Below, piece by piece: positions 2,970 to 58,345 of a stretch of 64,000 nucleotides of DNA. The DNA comes from an uncultured delta proteobacterium. GTDB lineage: Bacteria; Desulfobacterota; WTBG01; CAIYCZ01; CAIRTM01. Both the position numbers and the translations under genes were made by a program. The notes under the pieces were generated by a model, which was not told the origin of the DNA, searched no databases, and saw nothing but the letters and a program-made list of their open reading frames with translations. The stretch is from NCBI GenBank assembly GCA_963718965.1, contig CAVRBJ010000027.1:73360-137359 (forward strand), read 5' to 3'. The first letter of the stretch is position 1; the number at the start of each line of letters is the position of its first letter.

Positions 2970-4793
2970 TTATGCAAGGCCGAGTTCGGCAATCTTTTCA
3001 CTTGTGGGAATGCCGTTTTCATCCCACCCGCGCAGCTGGTAATACTCGGGCAGCATGACATCAAGCTTGCACACAAGGCCCTTGGCCCCGCCTTCCAGTA
3101 AAGGTTCTTTCAGAAGGCGCTCGGGCAGCGTGTCATCGGCTTTTGTAAAGCCCGCCCTGAGGTTGAACTGGCGCTCAAGGTTCCAGATGCGCTCGCCGGC
3201 CCGTATGACCTCTTCTGTGGTGTAATTAAAACCGGTCACGGCATTGAGCATGTCGCGCATGTCCTCATAGCCCATGCCGGGCGTCAGGGTCACAAAAAGG
3301 CACAGGCCCGCTGAATCGACAACCGCGGTAAGCTCCTGAAAAACCTTCACCGTCGCGGGCTTGTCCTTGGTTGTGTGGGGATCCATTTTCGCATGCACGC
3401 CGAGCACTTCATTGGCAATCAGGTAGCCGCGCACATGGCAGGCCCCGCGGTTAGACGTTGCATAGGTAAGGCCCATGCCCTGCACCCCGCGCGGATCATA
3501 GGCCGGTATTTCCTGTTTTTTTACGCCCATGAACAGCTCGGTGTGGCCGTATTTTTCCGCCAGCACATAGCCGCCGTCTGCAGCTACTGCGCCCAGGCCT
3601 TCTCTGCGGCCCATCTGCTCAATGAGCTTAACCAGGGCATCGGCATTGCCGAAGCTTAAATCCATGCCCGCATCCTCTTTCGGCATATAGCCTTTTTCAT
3701 AGAGCTCCATGGCAGTGGCAACCGTGCAGGCCGCCGATATCGTGTCCATCCCCAGCTCATTGCAGATATAATTTGCCTTGGTGATGGCCGCAAGATTATC
3801 AATGCCGCAGTCAGCGCCCATGAGCTCAACGGTTTCATACTCGGGGCCTTCGCCGTGGCCCTGAAATTTCGGGTCATCAATTTTGGTGGCTCTGCCGCAG
3901 CCGATGGTGCAGGCAAAGCAGCCTTTATTGCGGGTAAGGGTTGTTTCGGCAATGGTTTCGCCGCTGATTTTGCCCGCCGTGGCAAATGTGCCTGTCTGGA
4001 AATTGTTGGTGGGCAGAATGCCGCATTCATTAATGATGTTCACAAGAATCGCCGTGCCGTATTTGGGAAGGCCCTGGGAGGTAACCGGCCCGGCCTTCAG
4101 CTTATCCATGGCAGTGCGCACGGATTTCTTGAAAGCGTCGCGGTTTATTTTTCCAATGCCCTTTGATCCTTTAACCACAACCGCCTTCAGGTTCTTGGAG
4201 CCCATGACAGCGCCCACGCCCGAGCGGCCTGCTGCGCGGTGCTTGTCATTCATAATGCAGGCGAGTTTGCCGAGATTTTCGCCCGCTGGGCCGATGGAGG
4301 CAATATGAATTTCCTTTGCCATCCAGGGGTCGGAGATCTCGGCCCGTATCAGATCTTCGGTTTCATGCGTTGTTTTGCCCCACAGATGATCGGCCGTGCG
4401 GATTTCGATTTCATCGTCATTGATCCAGAGATACACGGGCTCGTCGGCCTTGCCCTCGAAAATGATGCCGTCGATGCCGGCAAACCGCAGCTCGGCAGGA
4501 AAGTATCCGCCGGAGTTTGAACAGGCAATGGCGCCGGTGAGGGGCGACTTGGTAATGACCATGTAGCGGGCGCTGCACGGTGCGCCCGTGCCGGTCAGGG
4601 GGCCGGTCATGAAGATCAGCTTGTTGTCAGGGCTCAGGGGGTCAATGTCGGCATCAACTTCGTCGCAGTAGATTTTTGTTCCCACGCCTCTGCCGCCGAT
4701 AAAATTCTTTTCCATTTCAGGGTCTATATCTTCAAATGCAAACTCGCGGGCGGTTAAATCCACTCGTAAAATTTTGCCGCTCCATGCTTCCAT
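2970..4793 (-). CDS. aor: Tungsten-type aldehyde:ferredoxin oxidoreductase (AOR family)
   Basis: The intact long ORF starts MEAWSGKILRVDLT...FIGGRGVGTKIY and continues ...NRGACHVRGY..., which is AOR-family-like throughout. I chose the ATG at 4793 because GGAGG lies 8 nt upstream. The ORF track start at 4808 is the alternative. Confidence 0.9.
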   Translation of the reverse strand: MEAWSGKILRVDLTAREFAFEDIDPEMEKNFIGGRGVGTKIYCDEVDADIDPLSPDNKLIFMTGPLTGTGAPCSARYMVITKSPLTGAIACSNSGGYFPAELRFAGIDGIIFEGKADEPVYLWINDDEIEIRTADHLWGKTTHETEDLIRAEISDPWMAKEIHIASIGPAGENLGKLACIMNDKHRAAGRSGVGAVMGSKNLKAVVVKGSKGIGKINRDAFKKSVRTAMDKLKAGPVTSQGLPKYGTAILVNIINECGILPTNNFQTGTFATAGKISGETIAETTLTRNKGCFACTIGCGRATKIDDPKFQGHGEGPEYETVELMGADCGIDNLAAITKANYICNELGMDTISAACTVATAMELYEKGYMPKEDAGMDLSFGNADALVKLIEQMGRREGLGAVAADGGYVLAEKYGHTELFMGVKKQEIPAYDPRGVQGMGLTYATSNRGACHVRGYLIANEVLGVHAKMDPHTTKDKPATVKVFQELTAVVDSAGLCLFVTLTPGMGYEDMRDMLNAVTGFNYTTEEVIRAGERIWNLERQFNLRAGFTKADDTLPERLLKEPLLEGGAKGLVCKLDVMLPEYYQLRGWDENGIPTSEKIAELGLA

Positions 4794-5562
4794 ATAATGG
4801 GCCTCCATATAATGATGTTGTTGCTTTAACTATGAACAGGCTTAACGAAAGTTTTTTAATCCCTTTATTTCACCCTCAGGCTGGAGGGCAACTTTTGACA
4901 GCAGAGCGTTTTTTTGAATACCGAAAAGCCTGAAGGCCGCAAAACTACCCCTTCAGGCTTCCTTCGCAAACATGGCGGGCCAGATTTCCGATCTGTCCTT
5001 ATCGGCTCCCCCTGAAGGGGAACTAGGAAACCTTTTTTTGTTGCCGTAGGCAATAAAAACGCCTTATTGATTTAATATGATTTTTTTTAAAAGTCAATTC
5101 TTTTGCATGCCCATTTTGAAAGAAAACCAAATTTTTTTCCGATGGCGTATAAGCATCAAATGCAGCTTAACATCGTTTTCCGTTGGCTTTATCAAGCTCC
5201 ATATACAACTGTTTTCTAATCAAAGCACCGAGCCGCAAGCGCCTGAAACGTCAGCTGTGGATCGACAGCCAAAAGGCAATAGCCCGAAAAAGCCCTTGCT
5301 TCCACATCGTTGAAGCACCGCGTTTTGATGCTGCAGTAATCGAGTCGCTCAGGTTTGCCAAGTCAAATTTTATTATTGCAAGCTTTGATACAGAGCGCTC
5401 AGAGCGGCGCCGTAGCGGCTGCTCCTTCAGTCGCCATCTTTTGAATTTTGCCGAAAAAGCAGAAATATTGCGCTAAACTTGGCGGGCTTTTTGTAGTATC
5501 TCTAAGCTCCAATCACGCCGCTGGCAGGACGCAGCGGGCCACCACTTCAGCTTGTGAGACAT

Positions 5563-5850
5563 ATGAAACCCGGACGCTGCAATGACATTCTAATCGATAA
5601 TCAGGGAAGGCTCATTATTCCCAAAGAGCTTGCCGATCATCTCGGGCTTGCACCGGGCGGCAGCGTGGCCCCTGCATCCCCCTCATGCACAGCCATGTGA
5701 GCTTTCTCAATGAGACCGCGAGCGGGTCATGCAGCGCTGCGTGATGGGCAGCCTGGCTGACCAGCCTCTGCAGGATATCTGGCAATCGGCAGAGTATGTG
5801 CGGCTGCGGCCTCTGTGCTCAGCGCATCATTCAGTGCCCTTAAAAATTCT
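5563..5850 (+). pseudogene. Possible remnant of an AbrB/SpoVT-domain plus radical-SAM/SPASM-type gene with an internal deletion
   Basis: The 45-codon ORF 5563..5700 (MKPGRCNDILIDNQGRLIIPKELADHLGLAPGGSV...) looks like a SpoVT/AbrB swapped-hairpin domain. The following ORF 5729.. begins ...CVMGSLADQPLQDIWQSAEYVRLR, which resembles the C-terminal tail of SPASM-type radical SAM proteins. No CxxxCxxC core is present. Confidence 0.3.
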
Positions 5851-6120
5851 GCAACTATTCAGGTCACCGGGTTTAGCTTTTGGGTTCATAAAAACCGTGA
5901 AGACAGAAGCACTGGTTGATAAGTGGCCGGCCTGCGACCTCCAACTTGCGCTTCACGGTAGCCGTCCAACTAAGGGTGTGTTTGTCTATTTACAATGTGC
6001 TGCTGACACAGCATTGCGATAGACGACTATATTTTCCACCCGTCGTTCATGTTTTCCTGTTTCTTTCCTGCCTTCTGAACCCTGCAACCTGAGGCCTGAA
6101 CAGCAAAATTCTTTACTGCC

Positions 6121-6162
6121 TTGACAAAAAACTGTTTTCTCGCTAATAAAGATGTATATACA
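6121..6162 (+). promoter_or_regulatory. Candidate sigma70 promoter plus palindromic operator upstream of marR
   Basis: TTGACA (6121-6126), a 17-nt spacer, then TAATAA (6144-6149). The perfect 10-bp palindrome TGTATATACA (6153-6162) follows immediately, about 36 nt before the marR start. Confidence 0.4.
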
Positions 6163-6197
6163 ACTACCTTTGTTCACTTTTTTGCGGACTGTGCGCT

Positions 6198-6638
6198 ATG
6201 AGTGCTTTTGATCACGACGGCAATTTCGGGCATATGCTGGGGCGCACGTCGCGCGCCATGCTCAACATGCTGCAAAAAAAATTCCGGCAGGCAGGCTGCG
6301 ACATTACCGTGGAGCAGTGGACCCTGCTCATAAATATCCGCAATGCCGACAGCCGGTCGCAACAGCAGCTTGCCGAGCTGGTCTATCTGGACAAAACCAC
6401 CATAGCCCGGCTTGCAGCGGGGCTTGAAAAAAAAGGGCTTATCAGCCGCGAGTCCCACAGCGCCGACCGGCGGCAAAAGCTGCTGGTCATTACAGCGCAG
6501 GGTACGGCTGTGCTGGCAGTTTTAAAGCCCGTGGCCCTTGCGGCCCAGCAGCAGGTGCTGCAGGATCTGGATCCGAAAAAACTCAAGAGCTGCCGTGATG
6601 TTCTGCAGCGGGTTTACAGCACTATTCTCAGCCAGTAA
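6198..6638 (+). CDS. MarR-family transcriptional regulator
   Basis: 146-aa protein with a winged-helix core: ...ITVEQWTLLINI...SQQQLAELVYLDKTTIARLAAGLEKKGLISRESHSADRRQKLLVITAQG. Confidence 0.85.
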   Translation: MSAFDHDGNFGHMLGRTSRAMLNMLQKKFRQAGCDITVEQWTLLINIRNADSRSQQQLAELVYLDKTTIARLAAGLEKKGLISRESHSADRRQKLLVITAQGTAVLAVLKPVALAAQQQVLQDLDPKKLKSCRDVLQRVYSTILSQ

Positions 6639-6686
6639 CCTTATCACCGGCGCCGCCCCTTCGGCCCGACACACAGGAGAACAGAG

Positions 6687-8138
6687 ATGATTAAAAAAGT
6701 TGCAGCTAGCCTTGCCCTCATTATTGTCATTGCAATCGCCGGATTTTTCGGCATGTATAAATACGAAAACCGGCGGCTCAGCCCCGACTATTTTCAGTAC
6801 TATAAAACTCAAAATACTGTTCCCGAAGGCAAAGTGGGCGTTTTTGTCACCGGCCTTATAATTCCCGAGACGCCCGACCCGGTCTTTTTTTACAACATCC
6901 AGCAGAAAATCACCAGGAACATCATTCCCTGGCCGTTCAGGATTTTTGCAGGCATGGACAAGGGCGTCGCCCTGTTTGATCCGGAGCGGTACTGCGAGTT
7001 TACGGAATTTATCCCCAAGCAGCTGGTGAATGCCGAGGGCGGCGACAGGGATATCGACGGCGAGCCCTATATGGAAAAGTACCGGCGAGGCGAGGTTGTC
7101 TGGCAGCCCCCCGCGAAAATGCTTCACAAAGACACCAGCTATTTTGTGTACACAAAACGCAAGGGCGGCATGCCGAGCTTGGCTGGCAAAATGATCGGGA
7201 AGGCCCGGCTCTGGTACTATGACCGGGGCATTGTGCAGAAAAAAATACCGCACTGGAAGGGCACATTTGATGTCATCAATAAGGCCATGGCAGGTATTGA
7301 CAAAAAGTATCCCGGCGTCATGTGGCGCGCCGAATGCGGCATGTACTTCTACGGGATGAAACAAAAGATCCATGAGATGCTTGACGCAGGCTGCACGACA
7401 ATTGTACTTGCCGCGCCCATGGCCGTCTTTTCACATTTCGAGGAATTCGACTCAAGCTTCCGCCACTCCAGCGAATATATTGAAGAATGGGAAAAAGCCC
7501 ATCCGGGCAAAAAGATCAAAATCATCATGGCGCCGCCCATGGGAAAGTTCAAGCCTCTGCGGGAAGCCTACCTTGCCATGCTGAAAGACCGGCTTGACAC
7601 CCTGCCCAAAGGCGCCTCGGTTGCCGTTGCCGCAGCCGTGCACGGGCTGCCCTGGGACCAGCGCTCCTGGGAGGCCTGGATCGAAATGGCGCCCGAGTAT
7701 CGCGACCCCCTGCTCGGAGAAATCCAGAAGCTTGTAAGCGGCTACGGTTTTTCAAAGACCACGGTCATGAGCTGCCAGGATGAATTTGCCGACCCCGTGC
7801 GCGATCCGAAAGACAAGTACCTGTCAACCAACGAGGCCTACTGGAAAGCCATTCGCGAAGGCTACGAATATGTGATCTGCCTGCCCATAGAGTTTTTTGC
7901 CGAGAATACCGATACGTTATACTACCACGCTATTAAAAATTATGACGGCTTTGACGGCTACAATGTCTATGAACCCATCAGCTATCCGGACTGGTCCGTG
8001 CCCTATACGCGTGAGTTTGTGCAAGACAAAACCCATGTCATTTATAACGGCGTGCCCGTGGGCAAATACCAGCACTATGTCGTGGATGCGCTCTACAGCT
8101 CCATCGACTCGGTGCTCAAACAAGGTACGGGAAAATAA
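6687..8138 (+). CDS. N-terminally membrane-anchored class-II chelatase (ferrochelatase/HemH-fold) homologue with large insertions
   Basis: Intact 483-aa ORF with RBS AGGAGA. It has an N-terminal hydrophobic helix (AASLALIIVIAIAGFFGM). Segments align by eye to HemH: GVFVTGLIIPETPDPV, DAGCTTIVLAAPMAVFSHF, SVAVAAAVHGLPW (the HemH catalytic-His motif SAHxLP), and GYEYVICLPIEFFAENTDTLYY (the HemH GFVADHLEVLY region). Confidence 0.6.
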   Translation: MIKKVAASLALIIVIAIAGFFGMYKYENRRLSPDYFQYYKTQNTVPEGKVGVFVTGLIIPETPDPVFFYNIQQKITRNIIPWPFRIFAGMDKGVALFDPERYCEFTEFIPKQLVNAEGGDRDIDGEPYMEKYRRGEVVWQPPAKMLHKDTSYFVYTKRKGGMPSLAGKMIGKARLWYYDRGIVQKKIPHWKGTFDVINKAMAGIDKKYPGVMWRAECGMYFYGMKQKIHEMLDAGCTTIVLAAPMAVFSHFEEFDSSFRHSSEYIEEWEKAHPGKKIKIIMAPPMGKFKPLREAYLAMLKDRLDTLPKGASVAVAAAVHGLPWDQRSWEAWIEMAPEYRDPLLGEIQKLVSGYGFSKTTVMSCQDEFADPVRDPKDKYLSTNEAYWKAIREGYEYVICLPIEFFAENTDTLYYHAIKNYDGFDGYNVYEPISYPDWSVPYTREFVQDKTHVIYNGVPVGKYQHYVVDALYSSIDSVLKQGTGK

Positions 8139-8148
8139 GGAGAAAATC

Positions 8149-9123
8149 ATGCCAACAGCCAGCAAAATAACAATTTTTCAGGTTGACCCGGCTTTGTGCA
8201 CCGGCTGCGGGGCCTGCGCCGGGGCATGTCCCATGCACATTCTTGAAGTCAGAGACGGGCTGAGCGCCATGACCAAAAACCGCCTGTGCCTTGAATGCGG
8301 GGCCTGCATGCGGGCCTGCCCCCGTCATGCCATCAGCGTGGCAAAGGGCGATGGGGCTGACGCCGATGCCGGGACGGACCAGAAGGCGACAGATGCTCCC
8401 GTAATGTTTACCCATGTGCTTGACGCTGTGATGGCCATTGTCGAAAAGGAGATGGAACCCCGGCAGGTATTTTCCTATAACGGCATGGACATGTCGGACC
8501 TGAACGTCATAGAAACCAACGATGCGCAGGGGTTTGCGCGCTGCTACACCGCTGACAAACTTCTGAAAATGTATCAGTCCCGGTTCACCTTTTTCGGCCA
8601 GATGTGCGTGGATGTATTCGGACTTGTGCCCGCGCCCGAATACGACCTGCCCATCTTCATGTTCGACTGGTCCGAGTCCGACGACTCAATTTTCTATATC
8701 TGCGACTTCTACCCCACCGATGATCCCGGCAGAAACCAGAAGTATCTGGCCTCGTATTTATATGAGCCCCTTGACGAGCTGTATCAGGCCAGCAGCACGA
8801 TACCGGGGCTGCGGCCAGTTCCGCTGCACTGGGTGCGGGCCCTTAATTCTCCCTACATGATAACAGGCCATATCGAAAAAGAGCCCCGCGAAAATATCGG
8901 CAGGCTCTTCAACTCGACGCTCGACTATCTGCGGGCCTGGATCGGCCTGTGGAAGAAGGCCAGGCCCTGCGACATGCAGTCGCGGCATATGCAGCTTGTG
9001 GCAGAGCGGCGGGCCGTGCTGCACGACCTCTATCTTGAAAATGATCCCGGCATCGGCTCCATCAATAAGTTCATCGGCGAAGAAAAAGGTGCGCGCGTGC
9101 TAAAACTCATACTACCGGAATAA
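8149..9123 (+). CDS. Fusion of a 2x[4Fe-4S] ferredoxin domain to a ferredoxin-dependent bilin reductase (FDBR/PcyA-family)-like domain
   Basis: The ATG at 8149 is preceded by AAGGAG. The longer track ORF from 7897 overlaps the previous gene. The N-terminus has CTGCGACAGACP and CLECGACMRACP. The C-terminal 250 aa carry FDBR-like blocks: RCY...KM..., VPAPEYDLPIFMFDW(6)FYICDFYPT (PcyA: FPEPLYGLPLFGCDIV...AIADLSPT), and a C-terminal ENDPGIGSINKFIGEEKGARVLKLIL (PcyA: [22 protein letters not shown]). Confidence 0.6.
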   Translation: MPTASKITIFQVDPALCTGCGACAGACPMHILEVRDGLSAMTKNRLCLECGACMRACPRHAISVAKGDGADADAGTDQKATDAPVMFTHVLDAVMAIVEKEMEPRQVFSYNGMDMSDLNVIETNDAQGFARCYTADKLLKMYQSRFTFFGQMCVDVFGLVPAPEYDLPIFMFDWSESDDSIFYICDFYPTDDPGRNQKYLASYLYEPLDELYQASSTIPGLRPVPLHWVRALNSPYMITGHIEKEPRENIGRLFNSTLDYLRAWIGLWKKARPCDMQSRHMQLVAERRAVLHDLYLENDPGIGSINKFIGEEKGARVLKLILPE

Positions 9124-9137
9124 AGGGAGAAATCATC

Positions 9138-10088
9138 ATGAAAACCGCAGAAATAGCTTTTTTGCCTGAAGCTGCAGACATGCTCGAAAAAATAGCCGCC
9201 ATCTGGCCGCCTATCATACGGCAGGGCAAAAAAGATAAAATTCTTTTCATGCTCAGCCTGCTTGCCCGCGCCAGAAAGATTAAAAAAGCCGACGCCGCCC
9301 TTGTTATCGAGGCCACGCGCCTGGTTGTGCCTAAGTCCTATGACCCTCTGTTTCATATGTTTGAGGACATGGAGGGGTTTAAGAAGCGCATGCTTGATCC
9401 CTTTGTGAGCGAAGCGGCGTACAACAAAATCCCTGTGAAGGTCAGGCGCTGGCCCACCCCCCGGCCGCGCAATAAAGCGGCTGCCAAACAGGCGAAAACT
9501 ATTCTTGCCGTCTGCGCAAGCCCGCGAGCCCGTGGCAATACCGATATGCTCATCGACGAGGCACTGCGCGGCGCAGCAGATGCCGGCGCGCGCACGGAAA
9601 AGATCATGCTCCACAAAATCAAGATGGGCTACTGCATCGGCTGTCGCAAATGCAAGGAGCCGGACTATGAAAAAATCTGCGTCATAAATGACGACATGGC
9701 AGATGTTTATCAAAAAATCATCGCAGCCGATGCCCTGATAATAGGATTCCCCATCTACACGGGCCGAGAATGCGCGCAGCTTTCGACATTTCTTGACCGC
9801 TGGGACGGCTATGAGCGCTACATGCTCAGCTCGCTGCTCAAGCCGGGCAGAACCGCTATGGTAATCGGCACCTGGGGCTATCCCTGCATCGACACCTATG
9901 ACCACGTGATTGAAAACATCATCTCCATTCTGAACCTGCACAAGGTCAAAACAATCGAGGCCCTGTCGGCCTGCGGATTTGAAGGTATGCGGCACGGCCT
10001 TGATGATCAGCGGCAAGGGGTCATTGCCCGCCATCCGAAAGAGCTCAAAAAAGCGTGTGACGCCGGCCGGGCCCTGGCCTGCAGCTAG
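9138..10088 (+). CDS. Flavodoxin-fold NADPH-dependent FMN reductase / iron-sulfur-flavoprotein-like protein with a roughly 110-aa N-terminal extension
   Basis: The core runs ILAVCASPRARGNTDMLIDEAL...YCIGCRKCKEP...ADALIIGFPIYTGRECAQL, typical of the FMN_red/Isf family. The gene starts 14 nt after the previous stop. Confidence 0.7.
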   Translation: MKTAEIAFLPEAADMLEKIAAIWPPIIRQGKKDKILFMLSLLARARKIKKADAALVIEATRLVVPKSYDPLFHMFEDMEGFKKRMLDPFVSEAAYNKIPVKVRRWPTPRPRNKAAAKQAKTILAVCASPRARGNTDMLIDEALRGAADAGARTEKIMLHKIKMGYCIGCRKCKEPDYEKICVINDDMADVYQKIIAADALIIGFPIYTGRECAQLSTFLDRWDGYERYMLSSLLKPGRTAMVIGTWGYPCIDTYDHVIENIISILNLHKVKTIEALSACGFEGMRHGLDDQRQGVIARHPKELKKACDAGRALACS

Positions 10089-10292
10089 ACACCAACAGGC
10101 CGTGAACAGGCGATTTTCAGTGCCCAGAATATGCCGCGCATGCCCCGCTTCGTTTCACCTGGGAACTTTTTGCCCTTTGCTGAAAACATGGCGGCGCTGT
10201 TTCGCCGCTGCTCACCCTCTAATATTAATTTATCTTCACCGTGCAATATGCTATACCTGCAAAAAAATATATTTGGTTTATAGGGAATTTAT

Positions 10293-12410
10293 ATGAATAA
10301 TGCAGTGATTAAGAAAAAATTTGCGCGCTCCGTTGTCCTGTGGAGCATCATTGTCAACGGTCTGTTTCTGGGCTGCGCGCAGCAGGGATCAGTACGGGCA
10401 ACAGATTTTTCCGGCACTCTTGAGCCCACAAAAGAACTTTCGCAGACAGCCCTGGAGGTGGTTAAGGAGGTCGGCCAGACGCATTATGTCCGCCATGAGC
10501 TTGATGACCGTTTTTCCAGCGCCGTATTCGACCGTTATCTGGCCGATGTCGACCCGACGCGCAGCGCTTTTTTTGCAAAGGATATCCAGGATTTTGAGCG
10601 CTACCGCTACACACTTGACGAAGCGCTCGGCTCAGGCAACCTCAAGCCGGCCTTTACAATCTACAACCGCTATCAGGAGCTCTTTACCGAGCAACTCCTC
10701 TACTGCATCGACCTTCTCGAGAACAAGAGCCAGTCCATCACGTTCGACATTAATGAAAGGATTGAGACCGAGCGCAAAACTGCTCCATGGCCCGCAGATG
10801 CCGCCGAGCTGAAGGACCTGTGGCGCCGGCGTGTCAAGGCGTCTCTTTTGAATCTCAAGCTTGCAGGCAAGACGACAGATCAGGCGCGCGACGTTCTGCT
10901 CAAGCGGTACCGCAATCAGCTCAATCAGATAAAGCTGATAAAGCCCGAAGACGTTGTACAGATTTTTATGAACTCCTATACCCGGTGCTATGATCCCCAT
11001 ACGGAATATCTGCCGCCCCGCGTGTCGGATAATTTCAATATTTCCATGAGCCTGTCTCTTGAAGGAATAGGGGCCGTACTGCAGAATGAAAATGAGTATA
11101 CCAAGGTCGTGAGCCTTGTGAAGGGCGGGCCAGCAGACAAGGCCGGGCAGCTCAAGCCCGCAGACCGCATCATCGGCGTAGGACAGGGCGCCGGCGGCGA
11201 AATCGTCAATGTTGTCGGGTGGCGCATCGATGACGTCGTGCAGCTTATTCGCGGGACCAGGCAAACCGTGGTGCGGCTTGAGGTCATTCCGGCGCATGCC
11301 GCCGATGAGCATCAGAGCACAATCATCAGCATCGTTCGCGATACGGTCAAGCTTGAGGAGCAGGCTGCCAAGAAAAAAATCATCCGGATCGAAAAAGGCG
11401 CCAGGACCTACAAAGTCGGGGTGATAGACGTTCCCACCTTTTATCATGACTTCAAGGGCGATCAAGCACGCACGGGCGCTTTGCGCAGCACGGCCGCCGA
11501 CGTGCGCCGGCTTTTAAACGAGCTCGAGCAGGAAAAAGTCTGCGGCATTGTGCTTGACCTGCGGGACAATGGCGGCGGGGCGCTGAATGAGGCCATTGCC
11601 GTGTCGGGGCTGTTCATCGACAAGGGCCCCATCGTGCAGGTAAAGGACTCCCGCGACAAAGTTTCCGTCTTGTCCGACCCTGAAAAGGGCATTGCCTATG
11701 CCGGGCCTCTGGTGGTGCTGGTGGGCCGCACAAGCGCCTCCGCCTCTGAAATCCTTGTGGGTGCCATGCAGGATTACCACCGCGCTATCATCATGGGCGA
11801 CCAGACCTTCGGCAAGGGCACGGTGCAGGCCCTGCTGCCGCTGAACAAAGGGCAGCTGAAAGTGACGCAGGCAAAATTTTACCGCATAACAGGAGAAAGC
11901 ACGCAGCACAAGGGCGTCTCGCCCGACATCACCTGCCCGAGCATTTATGACAAGAACAAAATAGGAGAAAGCGCGCTGCCCGACGCTCTTGCCTGGGATA
12001 AAATTGCAGCCGTGGACTACAAGGCCGGGCCTGATCCGGGGAACGCAATTGCGGGGCTCAACAGAAGTCATGAGCAGCGGTCGGCGCAAAATCCCGACTA
12101 TATTTATCTGAATGAACTGGCGGGCCATATCCGGACGGTTAGCGACAAGACGGTGGCATCTCTTTCCGAGGAAGTCCGCCGCACGGAGGATGCGCAGGAA
12201 AAAAAGTGGCGCCTTGATCATGAAAACAAGCGCCGGGCGGCAAAAAAACTGCCGCTGCTTGATAAGCTGCCGGACAATGCTACCGACATGGACAATGCCA
12301 CCGGACACGACAATCAGACTGCCGAGCCCGGCATCGACAAAGACCCCGTGCTGACCGAAGCGGCCAATGTGCTGGTTGATTATCTGCCGCTTGCGGCGCC
12401 GGTTAAATAA
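10293..12410 (+). CDS. prc: Carboxy-terminal processing (tail-specific) protease, S41 family with PDZ domain
   Basis: Intact 705-aa ORF with a signal-like N-terminus, a PDZ-like block (VVSLVKGGPADKAGQLKPADRIIGV) and an S41 core (LDLRDNGGGALNEA...GRTSASASEILVGAMQDY...GKGTVQ). Confidence 0.85.
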   Translation: MNNAVIKKKFARSVVLWSIIVNGLFLGCAQQGSVRATDFSGTLEPTKELSQTALEVVKEVGQTHYVRHELDDRFSSAVFDRYLADVDPTRSAFFAKDIQDFERYRYTLDEALGSGNLKPAFTIYNRYQELFTEQLLYCIDLLENKSQSITFDINERIETERKTAPWPADAAELKDLWRRRVKASLLNLKLAGKTTDQARDVLLKRYRNQLNQIKLIKPEDVVQIFMNSYTRCYDPHTEYLPPRVSDNFNISMSLSLEGIGAVLQNENEYTKVVSLVKGGPADKAGQLKPADRIIGVGQGAGGEIVNVVGWRIDDVVQLIRGTRQTVVRLEVIPAHAADEHQSTIISIVRDTVKLEEQAAKKKIIRIEKGARTYKVGVIDVPTFYHDFKGDQARTGALRSTAADVRRLLNELEQEKVCGIVLDLRDNGGGALNEAIAVSGLFIDKGPIVQVKDSRDKVSVLSDPEKGIAYAGPLVVLVGRTSASASEILVGAMQDYHRAIIMGDQTFGKGTVQALLPLNKGQLKVTQAKFYRITGESTQHKGVSPDITCPSIYDKNKIGESALPDALAWDKIAAVDYKAGPDPGNAIAGLNRSHEQRSAQNPDYIYLNELAGHIRTVSDKTVASLSEEVRRTEDAQEKKWRLDHENKRRAAKKLPLLDKLPDNATDMDNATGHDNQTAEPGIDKDPVLTEAANVLVDYLPLAAPVK

Positions 12411-12571
12411 ATTCCGGAGTCAGGAGTTCGGGGTGTCAAGATCCAGAGGATTCAAAACAGTTGAAATCGTAGGGGCAGACCCCCTAGTGTACGCTGCTCG
12501 CACCGGATAAATTGACGTAGGGCGACTGATGTCTGCCTAGACTTCTCTAAACATTTACGAGGATTTCGTTC

Positions 12572-13642
12572 ATGAAAATCGGCATTATCGGCCTGCCCCA
12601 GACCGGCAAAAAAACGTTGTTTCAAATTCTTACGGGCCATGTGTTCACCGAGCACAGCGATCAGAAAAAGCCCGCCATGGGAGTTGCTGATATTATCGAT
12701 CAGCGTTTTGAAAAGCTTGTGCAGATGTATAAACCAAAAAAGCAGATGCATGCCAAGATAGATATAGAGCTGCTGCCCAAGCTTGAAAAAGAGTCCATCG
12801 CCCGGGGCGATATCTTCAAGGATATTGCCGATGTCGATGCCGTCTGCCATGTGGTGCGCGCTTTTGAGGATGAGGCCATCTACCATGTGGACGGCTCCAT
12901 CGACCCCGTGCGCGACATTGATATGGTCGGGGGCGAGCTTATCCTGCATGATCTTCTGTTCATTGAAAAGCGGCTTGAACGGCTCGAAGCGCAGATGAAA
13001 AAGCAGAAGGACGAAAAGCAGCAGAAAGAGCATGAGATGCTGGTGCGCTTCCGGGAGCATTTGGAAAAAGAGCAGCCCCTGCGGCTGCTTGCGCTCAGCC
13101 ACGACGAGGACATGCTGATCCGCAGCTATCCTTTCATCACGCTCAAGCAGATGGTCATCGTGCTCAATGTCGCAGATGATGCGCTGGCTGACATGGCCAT
13201 TATCGAAAAGCTGCGCGCCCGCTGCGATGCTGAAAAGATGGAGGTCATGCAGGTGTCGGCCAAAATGGAGGCCGAGATCGCCGCCCTTGAATCGGAGGCC
13301 GAGCGCAGGGAGTTTTTAAAAGACCTCGGCATCGAGGAGCCGGCCCTGGGGCAGCTCACGCGTCTGTGCCTGAAGGCCCTGGGGCTCATGTCGTTTTTCA
13401 CCGTCGGCGAAGACGAGGTGCGGCAGTGGCTCATCCGCAGAAACGCAACAGCGCCCGAGGCGGCAGGCGCAATTCACTCAGACCTGCAGCGGGGCTTCAT
13501 CCGCGCAGAGGTATTCAAATACGGCGAGCTCATGGCGCACAAGAACGAGGCGGGCCTCAAGGCCGCGGGCAAGCTGTACCTCAAGGGCAAGGACTATATC
13601 GTCGAGGAAGGCGATATCCTGAACATCCGTTTCAAGGTATAA
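12572..13642 (+). CDS. ychF: Redox-regulated ATPase YchF (Obg-family GTPase-like)
   Basis: Starts MKIGIIGLPQTGKKTLFQILTG (P-loop) and has a C-terminal TGS-like ...GFIRAEVFKY...YIVEEGDILNIRFKV. Confidence 0.9.
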   Translation: MKIGIIGLPQTGKKTLFQILTGHVFTEHSDQKKPAMGVADIIDQRFEKLVQMYKPKKQMHAKIDIELLPKLEKESIARGDIFKDIADVDAVCHVVRAFEDEAIYHVDGSIDPVRDIDMVGGELILHDLLFIEKRLERLEAQMKKQKDEKQQKEHEMLVRFREHLEKEQPLRLLALSHDEDMLIRSYPFITLKQMVIVLNVADDALADMAIIEKLRARCDAEKMEVMQVSAKMEAEIAALESEAERREFLKDLGIEEPALGQLTRLCLKALGLMSFFTVGEDEVRQWLIRRNATAPEAAGAIHSDLQRGFIRAEVFKYGELMAHKNEAGLKAAGKLYLKGKDYIVEEGDILNIRFKV

Positions 13643-39524: not shown

Positions 39525-42500
39525 CTAAATTTTCCCAATCAACCTTTCTTCCATTTCCTGTATCAACTCCCGAACCGGTCGGTCGAAGAAAATTCCCTGC
39601 TCGGGTGCATCTTTTGAAAGCCCCCGGAGAAAAATATAGAAAACACCACCGAAATGTTTCTCATATTCATAGCCGGGCAGACGCAGTTGCAGATAGCAGT
39701 GCAGGGCAAGGGTGTACAGGTGATACTGCAGAAAATAGAAATTATCCCGCATGGCCTGCATGAGCCGGCCGGGGGCATAGTCGGAAGGGGCTGCGCCGAG
39801 AAAGTTCGACTTCCAGTCGATGATATAGAACCGCTCATCATGGCGAAAAACAAGGTCGATAAATCCGTTCATATACCCGGCAACGGAGGAGAAAACGAGT
39901 TCTTCAATGGCGCCGGTAAAGGCCGGCTGCCGGGCTTCTTTAAAGAGACCGGCAAGGGAGTTTTTCGACAGAGTGCGCAGGGGGAAATAAAAGCACAGCT
40001 CATGGAGCTGCGCTGAGCGGTCAATAGCGTTTAGGCTGCACACCGTGCTTTCACCCTGAAGCGCTACGGCGGCAACATCTGCAAGCATACGGCTGATAAC
40101 AGCTCTCCATTTGGCCTCAAGGCCGTATTGCAAAGCTTTTCCTGCACAAGCCCCTGAGTGGCCTCACCAGCCGGATCAGCAAAATCCGTGCGTTCTCCAG
40201 TATTTCATGCAGCATGGTGCCGATGCGGGCGCCTCCCGGCAGGGTGAACATGGTGCCTGCCTCCTGCGCAGGCGATGAAGCGGGAGGGGCTGAAAACTCG
40301 TCTGACTGGGGGAATTCCTGCTCATGGGGCCTGCCCGCGATAAGGGATGAGAAACTTGCAATGCGCCACTGGCGGCTGATGCTGCCGAAAAATTTCGGTT
40401 CGACAAGCTGCGGCTGCTTTTGCTCTGCTGCAGGAGACACTTGACGGTCAGAAGCGTTAAGAACCAAATCGCGTATGGCAATAGCGCCGCCGGAACTGTT
40501 GGCAATAGCTTTAAGCTCCTGGCGTATGTCCTCATCTGTAAGGCTTTAAAACTCTTCTTTCATTTGCGCGGCAATATCACCTGCTGCGTCAATACCTGCG
40601 CCGTGAAACAGGTATGCAGGCGCCGATGTGTATGCTTTGTCAAAGCTGCCCCAGACCATATAGCAGCGCCGCTTTGCCCGGGTGAGGGCCACATATAAAA
40701 GCCGCAGATCTTCTGCCAGCGTTTCGCGGGCTGCAATTTTTTTATGCTCATCAGATTGCTCTGAGCCGATATCAAGGGTTAGCCGCAAGCCATTGCCCGG
40801 GTCATGGAAAAGCACCTGCTGATTATTTCCTTTGCCGCCGGACCAGGCATAGGGGCAGAAGACAATGGGGTATTCAAGGCCTTTGCTCTTGTGGATGGTG
40901 ACGATTTTGACCGCGTCTTCATCGCTTTCAAGGCGCAGCTGATGCTCGTCGAGGCGGGGCGTGCCGGGATTGCGCTGGCAGGCAAGCCACTGCACAAGGC
41001 CGTCAATGCCCGGAGCTGTTTGCAGCTCCTGGCGGTGCAGCACTTCGGCAAGGTGCAAAATATTTGTTACCCGGCGCTCACCTTCAGGCTCGACAATCAG
41101 GCGCTCAAGAACTGAGCGCTCCACGAGCAGCCGGCGCAGCATGGCAAAGCAGCCCTGCTGCAGCCATAGATCATGCAGGCTGTTAAAGCCCGTGAGCTCG
41201 GCTTCATGGCTCGGGCTGTCCTGCAGAAGCTGCGCAAGCTTTTCAGCGTCATAGCCCAGCAGCACAGTAGCAAGCGCGGCCCGCAGGCACCCTTCAGAGC
41301 CGGGAGCGGCAACAGCGCGCAGCACAAGCTCAAGCTCGGCTGCCTCGGTCGTGTCAAAAATAGTTTCCGTGCTCTGGCGTATGGAGGGCACCCGGCGAAG
41401 CGCAAGCTCACGCTGCACAATGGCTGCTTCATGGTGCGTGCGAACCAGCACTGCCATATGCCCGGGCTGCTCGCCGGCTGCGATAAGAGTCACAATTTCA
41501 GCCGCCACGCAGCGGGCAATGCCCCGGCGAAGCTTTGTTACGCGCAGCTCTGCATGCTCGGCTTCAGGCACAAACCAGAGCTCAAAGGGCGGCGCGGTTG
41601 GCTGCCTGCTGCTACGCGCTCCGACACAGCATCGGTGAAACGTGATCTGCTCAAAGAGAAACGGATTAGCATGGCGGCCAAACAGCGCATTGACAGCGCT
41701 TATCAGCTGCGGGTCGGAGCGCCAGTTGGTGCCAAGGAGGTGCCGCTTTTTTACCTGCCCGACAGCGTCCAGATAGGTAAAGATATCAGCGCTGCGGAAG
41801 CTGTAGATGGCCTGCTTGGGATCGCCGATGAGAAAAAGGGCCGCGTCGGGATGCCGGAATATTTTTTCAAAAATCGCGTACTGCACCGGGTCCGTATCCT
41901 GAAATTCGTCAATCAGGGCAGCGGCAAATCTGGCGCGTACGGCAGCGGCAAGGCGGCTGCCCTCGGGCCCTATAAGGCCCCGGTAGACGCGCAGCAGCAG
42001 GTCGTCGAAATACTGAATATTCTGCGCCTGCTTGCGAAGCTCAAGCTCCTGGCGCACCTGCTCGAAAGCCGCGGCTTTTATAGCCAGCACCTGCCGGCTG
42101 TAGAGATTCTCAAGCTCCTGCGCGTTTCTATAAAAATCGCTGAAGGCATCGAAGAAGGGATGCACGGGCGGCCCGTCTTTTTTTGCAGCCTGTCTGCAGA
42201 TCGTCATTGGTGAAGCGGGAGGCATTTTCAAAAAGCGGCAGTTGTGGGCTGTCGGCGGCAAGCCAGGCGTCAAGCTGGCTGGCCCAGCCGGTGACATAGC
42301 GTTGCTGATACTTTCTGCCGTCGAGCATTTTGTTGTCCGTGAGAAGGCGGCAAATTTCGTCTTTGTTCGTCTCCCAGAGCGCTGCGAATGCCGGGTATAG
42401 CCTGCAGCAAAATTTCTTCGGCTGTCCCATAGTCAACCATAGCCTCCAGCGGCACGATGACCAGCTCGGGCTTGCTGACATGGCGGCTCACAAGGCTGTA

Positions 42501-43058
42501 GAGGCTGTCGGCGGTAAGGTTTGTCTGCAGGCAATAGGCCGTAAACAGGCGGCTCTGGCTGTAGATGTTTTTGCGCCAGAAGTCATCAACAGCGCGGCGC
42601 ACGAGATCGTCCTGCGAAGAAATAAGCTCCGTGTCGAATAACCCCCCGGCCTCGAAGGCCAGATCACGCAGCACCCGCTGGCAGAAGCCGTGTATGGTGA
42701 AAATGGCTGCCTCGTCAAAGTCGGCAATAGCAGCGGTAAGCAGGGGCACGGCATGCTCCCGGGTATGCCGGCTGAGCAGCTCCTGCAGAAACGCATCGTC
42801 TGCGGGTGCGCAGCCTGCTTGAAATGCATCGAGCGCCCCGCGAAGCCGGGTGCGCACGCGGTCGCGCAGCTCGCCCGTTGCTGCCTCGGTGAAGGTGACA
42901 ACCAGAATGCGGCGCACGTCCAGGTCGGGCCGTTCCAGTATCAGGCGCAGGAAAAGACTTGTGATGGTATAGGTCTTGCCCGTGCCCGCGCTGGCCTCGA
43001 TAAGCTGCGAGCCTTCAAGGGGGACGGCAAATGGTGAGAAATGTTTTGTATCTTTCAT
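39525..43058 (-). CDS. recB: Exodeoxyribonuclease V beta subunit RecB; four apparent frameshifts and one in-frame TAA in this assembly
   Basis: N-terminus IEASAGTGKTYTITSLFLRLI (ORF 42270..43058). The middle helicase part is ORFs 42128..42481 and 40546..42297 (...IDEFQDTDPVQY...TIHKSKGLEYPIV...LYVALTRAK). The linker is ORF 40117..40467. The C-terminal PD-(D/E)XK nuclease is ORF 39525..40133 (GFIDLVFRHDERFYIIDWKSN...QYHLYTLAL...GGVFYIFLRG). Confidence 0.85.
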
Positions 43059-56864: not shown

Positions 56865-57506
56865 ATGAGAAACGAAAACTGTAAATCAAAACGAATACTT
56901 GAACTGGCGGGAACCCTCCCGTCTTTTAGTGCTGCCGATCTGGCTCCTTTAGGGGAAAAAAGGCAGTATTTGAATATTGTTCTGTCCCGCTATGTAAAAC
57001 GGGGAATTCTGCTTCGTTTGCGGAAAAACCTGTATGTTGCCAAAAGCTATCTGGACCAGGCCGAGCGCAAAGGAATCTTTTCTGATTACGTTGAGTTTAC
57101 TGCCAATAAGCTTTACGCGCCTTCATATCTTAGCCTTGAGTATGTCCTTCATGAGCATAACTTGCTGACGGACTTGCCCCGGAACATCACTTCCGTGGGT
57201 ATGCGAAAGACCGATCATTTTTCCAATGAGCTTGGCAATTTTATTTACCATACAATCAAAGAAGATTTGTTCTGCGGTTTCAAGGTCATTAAGAAGGGAA
57301 ACTTTTCCATTCTTAAAGCCACCAAGGCCAAGGCGCTTTTTGATTTTCTTTATTTTCGGAAAAGGCTGCTGGTGGACCGGAAGGCTATCGAAGCTCTGAG
57401 GCTCAATCTTGATGAATTCAATAAAAATGATTTCAAAGAGTTGGAAGGCTACGTTGCCAAAGAAGGATCAGCCAAAATGAAGGAGATTATTAATTGGCTA
57501 AAGTAA
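56865..57506 (+). CDS. AbiEi-family (type IV toxin-antitoxin) antitoxin / transcriptional regulator
   Basis: 213-aa protein with an N-terminal winged-helix-like region, then ...GILLRLRKNLYV... Its position immediately upstream of, and overlapping, an AbiEii gene supports the call. Confidence 0.7.
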   Translation: MRNENCKSKRILELAGTLPSFSAADLAPLGEKRQYLNIVLSRYVKRGILLRLRKNLYVAKSYLDQAERKGIFSDYVEFTANKLYAPSYLSLEYVLHEHNLLTDLPRNITSVGMRKTDHFSNELGNFIYHTIKEDLFCGFKVIKKGNFSILKATKAKALFDFLYFRKRLLVDRKAIEALRLNLDEFNKNDFKELEGYVAKEGSAKMKEIINWLK

Positions 57507-58345
57507 ATACGATTATGGAAGCGATCAAACCGGTTCTTGTTAATATTGTGCAGGACTCTCCGTCCCGGAACAATCTTTTTAAACGGAATCTCTTGAAAGA
57601 GTATCTTCAGATTGTCGTTTTGGATTTTATATATTCCCATCCGGTTTACAGCCAACTTCTTTTTTACGGCGGTTCGGCGCTGGCGCATTGTTTTGATCTT
57701 CAGCGTCTTTCTGAAGACTTGGATTTCATTGATGAGTCAAAAAAGATTAAAGTTTCGGAACTGGCTAAAGACCTGGAAAACTATTTTACCACCCGCACCG
57801 ATCTTCCGGTCAAAGCCACTGTTCAGAAATTCCGTATCTATCTGAAATTTCCCATTCTTCGGGAACTGGATATTTCCGGAAGGGCTGAATCCGATGATTT
57901 ATTTTTAAAGGTTGAGGTGTATTCCGAGTTTGACTTCTGTGAGCATTATTCAACCGATATCCGGCCTGTTTTTAAGTATAACCGGTCGGTGCTGATTAAA
58001 ACGCTGGATACGGCGACGCTTATGTCCACTAAGATCAGGGCGATCCTTTACCGAAAGTGGGAAAAAACTGATAAACAGGGCCAGACCATCGTAAAAGTTA
58101 AAGGCCGGGACTATTTTGATCTCCTGTGGTATCTGCAGAAGGGGATGAAGCCAAATCTGGACTGCATCGAAGACGCTAATACCATGGATGAGCTTAAAGA
58201 AAAATTCTTGGCGATAGTTTCAAAGATTGACAGCCAGAGCATCCAGCTTGATCTTGAAGCGCTCATTGCCGATGCCAATTTCGTTAATAATTTGAGCCGG
58301 AATATGAAGGCGATCCTGGAACGGGAGATTTCAGAAAAATTGTGA
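57494..58345 (+). CDS. AbiEii/AbiGii-family nucleotidyltransferase toxin
   Basis: ...LLKEYLQIVVLDFIY......LLFYGGSALAHCFDLQRLSEDLDF (the GG[TS]AL...R.S.DLDF NTase motif). The TTG start at 57494 has AAGGAG 9 nt upstream; the ATG at 57515 is the alternative. Confidence 0.8.
   Translation: MAKVNTIMEAIKPVLVNIVQDSPSRNNLFKRNLLKEYLQIVVLDFIYSHPVYSQLLFYGGSALAHCFDLQRLSEDLDFIDESKKIKVSELAKDLENYFTTRTDLPVKATVQKFRIYLKFPILRELDISGRAESDDLFLKVEVYSEFDFCEHYSTDIRPVFKYNRSVLIKTLDTATLMSTKIRAILYRKWEKTDKQGQTIVKVKGRDYFDLLWYLQKGMKPNLDCIEDANTMDELKEKFLAIVSKIDSQSIQLDLEALIADANFVNNLSRNMKAILEREISEKL

Follow-up and report, generated by a model that had tools for sequence, protein, structure and literature searches.

Very large quantities of tetrapyrroles, among them heme, chlorophylls and bilins, are produced and become buried in anoxic sediments, and their processing by strict anaerobes is known only in part, from examples such as BilR, ChuW/ChuY and HmuS. 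To our knowledge, ferredoxin-dependent bilin reductases (FDBRs) have so far been tied to O2-dependent heme oxygenase and to light-harvesting or light-sensing pigments. Here we analyze a stretch of 64,000 nucleotides from an uncultured delta proteobacterium of sulfate-reducer type (contig CAVRBJ010000027.1, positions 73,360 to 137,359; hereafter the window) and, within it, a marR-headed operon that encodes a ferredoxin-FDBR fusion (FdFDBR), a membrane-anchored protein with a predicted ferrochelatase fold (Chel483) and a predicted iron-sulfur flavoprotein (Isf316). We infer for this operon the function of an anaerobic tetrapyrrole-processing module, a credible one and so far undescribed.

Among described systems, the pre-PcyA FDBRs (Pre-1 to Pre-3) occur in non-photosynthetic bacteria, including "delta-proteobacteria," in conserved gene clusters (PMC10151467, PMC13446030). 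In these clusters, a heme oxygenase is accompanied by a globin, a V4R pair and an Fe-S protein encoded separately, and Pre-1 is without the catalytic Asp (PMC10151467, PMC13446030). Variants of FDBRs can bind protoporphyrin IX and heme (PMC13446030). The BilQRS operon of strictly anaerobic gut Firmicutes combines a MarR regulator, a bilin-type reductase that acts on bilirubin, and a flavodoxin-like protein (PMC10769871). HmuS of Bacteroidota is a membrane-bound, reductant-dependent anaerobic heme de-chelatase, for which a flavodoxin has been proposed as electron meter (PMC12583661). In the literature we found nothing on a ferredoxin-fused FDBR, nor on FDBRs in sulfate reducers or anaerobes.

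The operon consists of four intact, co-directional open reading frames (ORFs) at positions 6198 to 10088, separated by gaps of 48, 10 and 14 nt. The genes and their domains are as follows.

6198-6638, plus strand: marR, MarR-family transcriptional regulator, 146 aa (PF01047, 53.1 bits; cut-off, 24.6)
6687-8138, plus strand: Chel483, 483 aa, N-terminal membrane anchor (residues 2-27) followed by a predicted class II chelatase (ferrochelatase) fold (AlphaFold2 model and Foldseek)
8149-9123, plus strand: FdFDBR, ferredoxin-FDBR fusion, 324 aa counted from the ATG (the listed ORF begins further upstream, at a TTG)
8149-8352, plus strand: ferredoxin domain of FdFDBR, two CxxCxxCxxxCP motifs, Pfam matches to Fer4 and Fer4_7
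8401-9123, plus strand: FDBR-fold domain of FdFDBR (residues 85-324), found by PF05996, by profile search against the PDB and by Foldseek; Asp186 at 8704-8706, Asp299 at 9043-9045
9138-10088, plus strand: Isf316, predicted iron-sulfur flavoprotein (FMN_red), 316 aa
9138-9491, plus strand: 118-aa N-terminal extension of Isf316, with no recognised domain, conserved in Isf316 homologues
9492-10088, plus strand: Isf-like FMN reductase domain of Isf316 (PF03358), Cys motif at nt 9633-9680

A preliminary description of this DNA, made from the letters alone, had given the same four co-directional ORFs and the same gaps, each ORF with a Shine-Dalgarno sequence; AGGAG, AAGGAG and AGGGAG indeed sit 5 to 9 nt 5' of the three downstream ATGs. 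It had also called the ORFs intact. The protein lengths equal those of homologues on other contigs (146, 483, 324, and 316 to 317 aa), and the genes are therefore intact.

The C-terminal domain of FdFDBR is a true FDBR-fold domain, an assignment that we regard as solid. Residues 131 to 321 match PF05996 (Fe_bilin_red) at 41.2 bits, above the cut-off of 31 (E 1.9e-10). A profile built from the fusion domain and its stand-alone paralogues was searched against the PDB and retrieved HY2 (E 1.3e-22), PebB (7e-18), PebA (3e-9), RCCR (3.5e-8) and PcyA (4e-8), at identities to solved FDBRs of 13 to 20%. Similarly, an AlphaFold2 model with a pLDDT of about 90 over most of the FDBR part gave HY2, PcyA, RCCR, PebB and PebA as its top Foldseek matches (E 6e-12 for HY2 to 1e-9; target TM 0.65 to 0.78), and a fold match to coproporphyrinogen oxidase appeared at ranks 47 to 49. 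Asp186 (in ICDFYP) aligns on the Asp of the DxxP segments of HY2 (vlDLNP), PebB (aiDMQP) and PebA (vlDFQP), and Asp299 (in NDPG) aligns on the DP Asp of HY2, PebB and PebA (EKDPG, EKDPA and ERDPA, respectively). Neither residue varies in the fusion family or in the stand-alone paralogues. From the literature, we take their positions to be those of the two proton-donating catalytic Asp residues of the HY2/PebA/PebB/PebS group. The FDBR-like fusion of the preliminary description is thus borne out by a Pfam score above cut-off, an HY2 profile match at E 1e-22, the fold and both catalytic Asp residues; among the FDBR tests run, only a heme oxygenase or acceptor context is missing.

The N-terminal 70 residues of FdFDBR carry C17/20/23/27 and C47/50/53/57, two complete CxxCxxCxxxCP motifs that imply 2x[4Fe-4S], and these cysteines are nearly invariant across the family. 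In two related loci (L004 and L028; related loci are numbered with the prefix L), the ferredoxin is a separate 73-aa gene directly 5' of the FDBR gene. The same ferredoxin being fused here and separate and adjacent there constitutes a Rosetta-stone link, which marks it as the dedicated donor. The unfused pair, the 73-aa ferredoxin and a 240-aa FDBR, lies at 3634-4596 of L004 (identical in L028), and L004 also encodes, at 11755-12573, a third FDBR paralogue with a hydrophobic N terminus.

The fusion is rare, with 27 clusters among 5.8e9 proteins; with the FDBR domain alone, only 80 clusters were retrieved at E<=1e-3 among 1.84e9 representatives. Across species-representative genomes, about 28 loci carry the fusion, and they belong to uncultured metagenome-assembled genomes (MAGs) of Thermodesulfobacteriota or "delta proteobacterium" and to one Spirochaetota single-cell genome. 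The MAGs in question derive from sediments of lakes and springs. More distant fusions (clade B, 40 to 51% identity) sit in larger islands.

Chel483 is predicted to be a two-domain class II chelatase by fold, not by sequence thresholds. Its AlphaFold2 model, computed from a 40-sequence alignment (pLDDT, 93.2; pTM, 0.91), returned 44 top Foldseek matches that are all ferrochelatases or CpfC, including those of B. subtilis, human and yeast (E 5e-11 to 4e-7). The target TM was 0.59 to 0.75 (0.64 to 0.75 for all but three), and CbiK(P), SirB and FetB came next. The family comprises at least 366 clusters and is highly conserved, and some of its members have a precomputed PF00762 match. Four residues are invariant: H319 (in VHGLPW) and E406, N407 and D409 (in FFAENTDTL). 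In the model, H319 closes strand 311-318, the first of domain 2, and E406/N407/D409 come after strand 395-400, places in the secondary structure where the putative catalytic residues would be expected. The two segments resemble the AHSLP and DHxETL motifs of ferrochelatase, presumably with Asn and Asp where ferrochelatase has His and Glu.

The helix formed by residues 2 to 27 in the model bears on the orientation of Chel483. Positive charge before the hydrophobic segment is missing in 13 of the 29 homologues parsed, and KYKNRR-type residues follow the segment in nearly all of them. By the positive-inside rule, this charge pattern suggests that the catalytic domain probably faces the cytoplasm. 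The alternative that Chel483 is secreted into the periplasm, in the manner of CbiK(P), was rejected on the charge pattern around the hydrophobic segment. Tandem duplicates of Chel483 occur in five loci (L098, L105, L111, L125 and L126), where two copies, each 57 to 61% identical to the window protein, lie 1.6 to 2.5 kb apart.

The third protein, Isf316, matches FMN_red (PF03358) at 62.6 bits against a cut-off of 24. The preliminary description had called it an FMN-reductase-type flavoprotein; to this domain can be added an Isf-type Fe-S motif, C166-x2-C169-x2-C172-x8-C181, which is also present in shorter FMN_red proteins flanking other Chel483 homologues. A compact CxxCxxCx(n)C near the start of an FMN_red domain is the pattern of Isf. 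Isf316 is thus predicted to be an iron-sulfur flavoprotein-type FMN reductase, its four-Cys motif pointing to a putative [4Fe-4S] cluster. The 118-aa N-terminal extension is highly conserved among homologues and matched nothing in Pfam at E up to 10. Its equivalence to unk124, a small protein of the clade B islands, was rejected: unk124 is a membrane protein and has no similarity to the extension.

Two regulatory elements precede marR.

6121-6149, plus strand: putative promoter, -35 TTGACA (6121-6126), 17-nt spacer, weak -10 TAATAA (6144-6149)
6150-6165, no strand assigned: probable MarR operator, 16-bp inverted repeat AGATGTATATACAACT just 3' of the -10 box (89% complementarity, inverted-repeat finder)

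The "good promoter" of the preliminary description was an overstatement in that the -10 box agrees with the consensus at 3 of 6 positions and a consensus promoter scan called no promoter upstream of marR. What stands is a perfect -35 box that is conserved in four relatives with diverged flanks (L006, L008, L009 and L017), in which CTTGACA does not vary and the -10 position is retained, reading TACTAT in one of the four. The 10-bp palindrome noted at the same time, TGTATATACA (6153-6162), is real and forms the core of the 16-bp repeat, and relatives carry AGTTGTAAATACAACT, a perfect 7+2+7 repeat, at the equivalent position. Conservation of the -35 box, the -10 position and the repeat across diverged flanks constitutes a phylogenetic footprint in which an operator overlaps a promoter, the layout expected of an autoregulated MarR repressor; judged from sequence, the repeat is a probable MarR operator. 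The regulator itself has the winged-helix domain of PF01047. No specific match to an NCBIfam equivalog was found, BilQ reaching 41 bits against a cut-off of 125.

The order MarR-Chel483-FdFDBR-Isf316 is kept in close relatives (L006-L009, L016, L017 and L106), which establishes the synteny of the gene trio in other genomes; contig-length matches suggest that the arrangement holds down to 57 to 60% identity. The earlier claim that the three proteins form a "self-contained unit" is too strong. The parts are separable: L055 encodes MarR, Chel483 and Isf316 without an FDBR, and L001 and L002 encode AKR-Fer4, FdFDBR and Isf316 without Chel483. Further, the flavoprotein family is a generalist one, and the distant fusions lie in far larger islands.

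In these clade B islands, FdFDBR and one or two stand-alone FDBR paralogues are accompanied by a MarR or TetR regulator, SDR, a small membrane protein, FAD-oxidase/CCG pairs and AKR-Fer4, and often also by DUF1302/DUF1329 and an aldehyde:ferredoxin oxidoreductase (AOR). The island of L041 (41-16382) is one long operon, with related islands in L069, L070, L075, L077, L025, L027 and L042. Its genes encode an FAD-oxidase, AOR, an uncharacterised 252-aa protein, an Isf-like FMN_red protein, CCG, a PNPOx-like protein, thiolase, Chel483, (Fd)FDBR, FDBR2, SDR, a small membrane protein, FAD_binding_4, CCG and a PNPOx-like protein. With two or three FDBR paralogues at its center, a clade B island looks like a complete catabolic pathway. 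We considered the PNPOx-like proteins of these islands as HugZ/ChuZ-type heme oxygenases and rejected them; no such relationship was detectable, and the weak PDB matches were only to proteins of the general stress protein 26 type. Three single MAGs (bin-3252, L016 and L024; bin-1461, L017 and L038; Zod_Metabat.1117, L019 and L022) carry a clade A operon, of the kind seen in the window, and, on another contig, a clade B fusion. The source genome of the window may likewise hold a second, larger island outside it.

In L025, L027, L041, L042, L069, L070, L072, L075, L077 and L082, too, the adjacent genes include a Chel483 homologue. A third arrangement joins Chel483 to a 245-aa FDBR (FDBR245) and DUF1302/DUF1329 in L014, L056 and L088, and L084 has a further one. 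Among 80 metagenomic Chel483 loci, 12 have an FDBR-like gene (8 of the 35 loci of at least 9 kb) and about 13 have an Isf-type reductase next to Chel483. Because FDBR-like proteins are so rare (80 clusters among 1.84e9 representatives), the co-location of Chel483 and FDBR is not due to chance.

Other contexts of Chel483 also seem, from their gene content, to be of tetrapyrrole type. Beside Chel483 homologues in L011, L059 and L062 are HemG-like flavodoxins. Two unclassified metagenome contigs, L012 (1-10285; sample ERZ25039527) and L013 (1-10171; ERZ25039459), have a nitrogenase-like cluster around a Chel483 homologue. It encodes a NifH-like and two divergent DPOR-like proteins (BchN/BchB, PCP_red domain), all under equivalog cut-offs, together with two CfbA/HemH-like chelatases, a ferredoxin, a geranylgeranyl-reductase family flavoprotein, a TPR protein and an Isf-like FMN reductase. 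The cluster looks like an uncharacterised nitrogenase-like tetrapyrrole reductase system, and its Chel483 gene has close homologues from Thermodesulfobacteriota-type MAGs.

On the other side of marR lies a divergent neighbor.

2970-4808, minus strand: W-type AOR (AFOR_N, E 1e-86; AFOR_C, E 3e-153)

This AOR is a possible ferredoxin-reducing partner of the system, although its membership is uncertain. AOR genes are also found near the system in L003, L016, L033, L037, L041 and L064-L068, at identities of only 29 to 39%. Compared with the AOR at the same position in close relatives (L016 5995-7620, L106 and L055), the window AOR is 37 to 39% identical, whereas the operon proteins there are 78 to 90% identical; the AOR neighbors are therefore paralogues, not orthologues. 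The gap between AOR and marR, 1.4 kb in the window and about 0.4 kb in relatives, contains a decayed, frame-shifted fragment (5560-6022) like a radical-SAM C-terminal SPASM region. The SPASM-like ORF in it (5729-6022; E 8e-4) scores 20.1 bits, slightly under cut-off, and directly upstream of the fragment is a short MazE/AbrB-like fragment. At the other end of the operon, only 204 nt (10089-10292) separate the flavoprotein gene from an S41 peptidase gene. Relatives L006-L008 have a 91-aa minus-strand ThiS/MoaD-like gene there, for which tblastn found no homologue in the window.

We propose that MarR would repress the operon by binding the 16-bp inverted repeat over the transcription start and that binding of a pigment or derivative would release the operator. 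Chel483, tethered at the cytoplasmic face of the membrane, would bind an imported cyclic metallo-tetrapyrrole, of which heme seems the likeliest, and move its metal. By analogy with HmuS, we favor reductive metal removal as the direction of this step, with Isf316 supplying the electron that would make the metal labile. FdFDBR would reduce a bilin-type tetrapyrrole at one or more of its C=C bonds in successive one-electron, one-proton steps; electrons delivered by Isf316, or by ferredoxin that AOR has reduced, would travel through the fused 2x[4Fe-4S] domain to the substrate, and Asp186 and Asp299 would donate the protons, as their counterparts do in HY2, PebA and PebB. A macrocycle might also be opened to feed the FDBR.

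We consider it likely that the system is tetrapyrrole related at all. The specific scheme, a MarR-controlled, ligand-inducible, O2-independent tetrapyrrole module of Chel483, FdFDBR and Isf316, is quite possible, and we put it forward tentatively. A broader reading, which we regard as rather doubtful, is that sediment Thermodesulfobacteriota catabolise tetrapyrroles derived from heme or chlorophyll by an O2-independent route. Along this route, a ferrochelatase-fold enzyme working in reverse and driven by an iron-sulfur flavoprotein would strip the metal, and an unrecognised enzyme would, with no need of O2, open or destabilise the macrocycle. The product would then be reduced stepwise by ferredoxin-fused FDBRs and their paralogues, and the SDR, thiolase, FAD-oxidase/CCG, AKR and AOR proteins of clade B would degrade it further. 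It is a realistic prospect that the whole system represents a new pathway of anaerobic pigment catabolism.

Several observations weigh against the proposed scheme. Chel483 scores 18.6 bits with Pfam Ferrochelatase (PF00762), under the cut-off of 27, and 15.2 bits with NCBIfam hemH (TIGR00109), under the cut-off of 124.6. Its family profile found no match among PDB sequences even at E<=10. The class II chelatase call of the preliminary description therefore stands on structure (ferrochelatase E 5e-11, TM 0.64 to 0.75) and not on a profile match, which is sub-threshold. A comparison of the Chel483 profile with E. coli HemH gave a probability of 0.2, and unfiltered hmmsearch against HemH and CbiX-like neighbors gave nothing usable; the putative mapping of catalytic residues draws on ferrochelatase motifs and not on a computed alignment. 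Since L055 is without an FDBR and L001 and L002 are without Chel483, the two proteins need not catalyse consecutive steps. Isf316 belongs to a family of 344 clusters, in which homologues at 57 to 64% identity stand alone among unrelated genes, and it looks like a general electron carrier recruited to the operon. The clade B thiolase, SDR, FAD-oxidase/CCG, AKR and AOR proteins would suit other hydrophobic substrates too.

The search for partner enzymes also counts among these points. When the window and some 1.5 Mb of related loci were searched by tblastn with ChuW, ChuX, ChuY and ChuS (E. coli O157) and HemN and HemH (K-12), no match at E<1e-4 was obtained. Nor did the scanned window ORFs or the Pfam-annotated related loci include a gene for heme oxygenase, phytochrome, phycobiliprotein, globin or V4R. 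Because the scanned loci hold no known ring-opening enzyme, no known enzyme links the cyclic substrate of a chelatase to the open-chain substrate of an FDBR.

Two conventional explanations were rejected in the same searches. ChuW/ChuY-type anaerobic heme degradation was set aside in that neither the radical-SAM ChuW nor the reductase ChuY was found in the window and the 1.5 Mb of loci. A conventional heme oxygenase/phytochrome context was not found inside the window; as the preliminary description had stated, neither gene is there among the 34 larger ORFs scanned, which also include no second copy of the system.

An explanation from exogenous bilins only, which we think somewhat unlikely, would have FdFDBR and the clade B paralogues reduce open-chain tetrapyrroles from decaying phototrophs, leaf litter or animal matter (biliverdin, phycobilins, phyllobilins). 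This reduction would serve to detoxify the compounds, to dispose of electrons as a sink or to start their catabolism, and Chel483 would be a tetrapyrrole-binding or -handling protein or serve an unrelated step. Both bilin-reductase Asp residues are kept and the nearest relatives are HY2 and PebB, as this explanation would predict, and clade B has two or three FDBR paralogues in a row, like PebA/PebB. Uptake-type genes (DUF1302/DUF1329/MMPL) lie nearby, the MAGs are from lake and spring sediments, and FdFDBR occurs without Chel483 in L001 and L002. No ring-opening enzyme is required, which fits the negative ChuW/HemN tblastn result. The architecture also parallels that of BilQRS (PMC10769871). 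However, the repeated, independent co-location of a ferrochelatase fold and an FDBR is left unexplained, and no bilin transporter or acceptor was identified.

In heme iron salvage with a porphyrin-directed FDBR, Chel483 and Isf316 would strip the iron and FdFDBR would reduce the macrocycle or its vinyls, converting toxic protoporphyrin IX to a harmless or reusable product. We judge this unlikely. The pairing of Chel483 with Isf-type reductases would be accounted for, as would the HemG-like flavodoxins that adjoin Chel483 homologues, and Foldseek finds the FDBR fold to be common to coproporphyrinogen oxidase. We know of no natural FDBR that reduces a cyclic tetrapyrrole, however, and the conserved Asp pair is a bilin-reductase signature. 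The operon is also without an iron-responsive regulator or iron transporter, and MarR proteins typically sense organic ligands. Heme salvage does have a precedent in HmuS (PMC12583661), and FDBR variants bind protoporphyrin IX and heme (PMC13446030).

Alternatively, the FDBR fold might have been recruited to another conjugated hydrophobic compound, such as a polyene, isoprenoid or aromatic, and Chel483 might have lost its chelatase chemistry. The clade B thiolase, SDR, FAD-oxidase/CCG, AKR-Fer4, AOR, geranylgeranyl-reductase-like flavoproteins and DUF1302/DUF1329 are of the kind that typically goes with anaerobic breakdown of hydrophobic compounds, regulators of the TetR or MarR family occur, and Chel483 is under its family cut-offs. 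This is nevertheless decidedly unlikely: as far as we know, all characterised FDBR-family enzymes use linear tetrapyrroles, both catalytic Asp residues are kept, and independent families of tetrapyrrole type (chelatase fold, DPOR-like, CfbA-like and HemG-like) co-occur. A biosynthetic role, in which Chel483 would be the organism's ferrochelatase and FdFDBR would make a bilin cofactor for some sensor, is highly improbable; the ferrochelatase fold, HemG-like neighbors at some loci and heme-biosynthesis genes 4 to 9 kb downstream in L006 would suit it, but the window itself has no hem genes near the operon, MarR/TetR control, tandem Chel483 duplicates and catabolic-type neighbors are unlike housekeeping biosynthesis, and the scanned window ORFs and annotated loci yielded no partner of the heme oxygenase, phytochrome, globin or V4R type.

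Elsewhere in the window, a UvrD-type helicase gene on the minus strand (40546-43058) is split into overlapping ORFs of 583 and 262 aa, which fits a frameshift or assembly indel, in line with an earlier remark that the window is indel prone. At 57494-58345 lies a gene for an AbiEii-family nucleotidyltransferase toxin (type IV toxin-antitoxin); the ORF at 56865-57506 may be its partner.

If the function of a tetrapyrrole-processing module is confirmed, the FDBR family would extend into anaerobic catabolism or detoxification. The basis for such an extension is a ferredoxin-fused FDBR with catalytic residues, in non-phototrophic anaerobes, repeatedly beside an uncharacterised ferrochelatase-fold family. 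Confirmation would also provide a handle on the anaerobic fate of pigments and shed light on how FDBRs arose. The proteins are small, directly testable and, apart from one membrane anchor, soluble.

Compared with the pre-PcyA clusters, the operon differs in its partners, a chelatase-fold protein, an Isf-like flavoprotein and MarR; its ferredoxin is fused, and the pre-PcyA partners were not seen. BilQRS resembles the scheme proposed here by analogy, in its MarR regulator, its open-chain tetrapyrrole reductase and its flavodoxin-fold electron carrier. Unlike FdFDBR, however, BilR is a member of the Old Yellow Enzyme (OYE)/2,4-dienoyl-CoA reductase family and is not related to FDBRs, and BilQRS is without a chelatase-like gene. 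By Pfam, the operon encodes no OYE-family protein, and with MarR at 41 bits against the 125 of BilQ it does not belong to BilQRS.

The soluble part of Chel483 is predicted to have the two-domain fold of the class II chelatases (HemH/CpfC, CbiK, CbiX and SirB) throughout. It also has a His that ends the first strand of domain 2 (in VHGLPW) and, at what would be the site of the ferrochelatase Glu motif, the acidic FFAENTDTL. In contrast to these enzymes, Chel483 is about 150 residues longer and membrane anchored, and it is not placed with heme-biosynthesis genes. HmuS may serve as a functional model for Chel483 with Isf316, in which Chel483 would carry out de-chelation; HmuS itself is a large class I protein (CobN/ChlH-like) and not homologous to Chel483. 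Isf316 has the flavodoxin-like domain with a compact Cys motif near the domain start that is found in Isf of methanogens and FMN_red proteins, from which it differs in its conserved 118-aa N-terminal extension.

FdFDBR itself shares with HY2, PebA and PebB the fold, a significant sequence relation and both proton-donating Asp residues, and, like them, it would have no cofactor of its own and take single electrons from an Fe-S protein. Here the scanned surroundings hold no heme oxygenase, phytochrome or phycobiliprotein. Unlike in HY2, PebA and PebB, the donor is an N-terminally fused bacterial-type ferredoxin with 2x[4Fe-4S], and the host is non-phototrophic and apparently a strict anaerobe.

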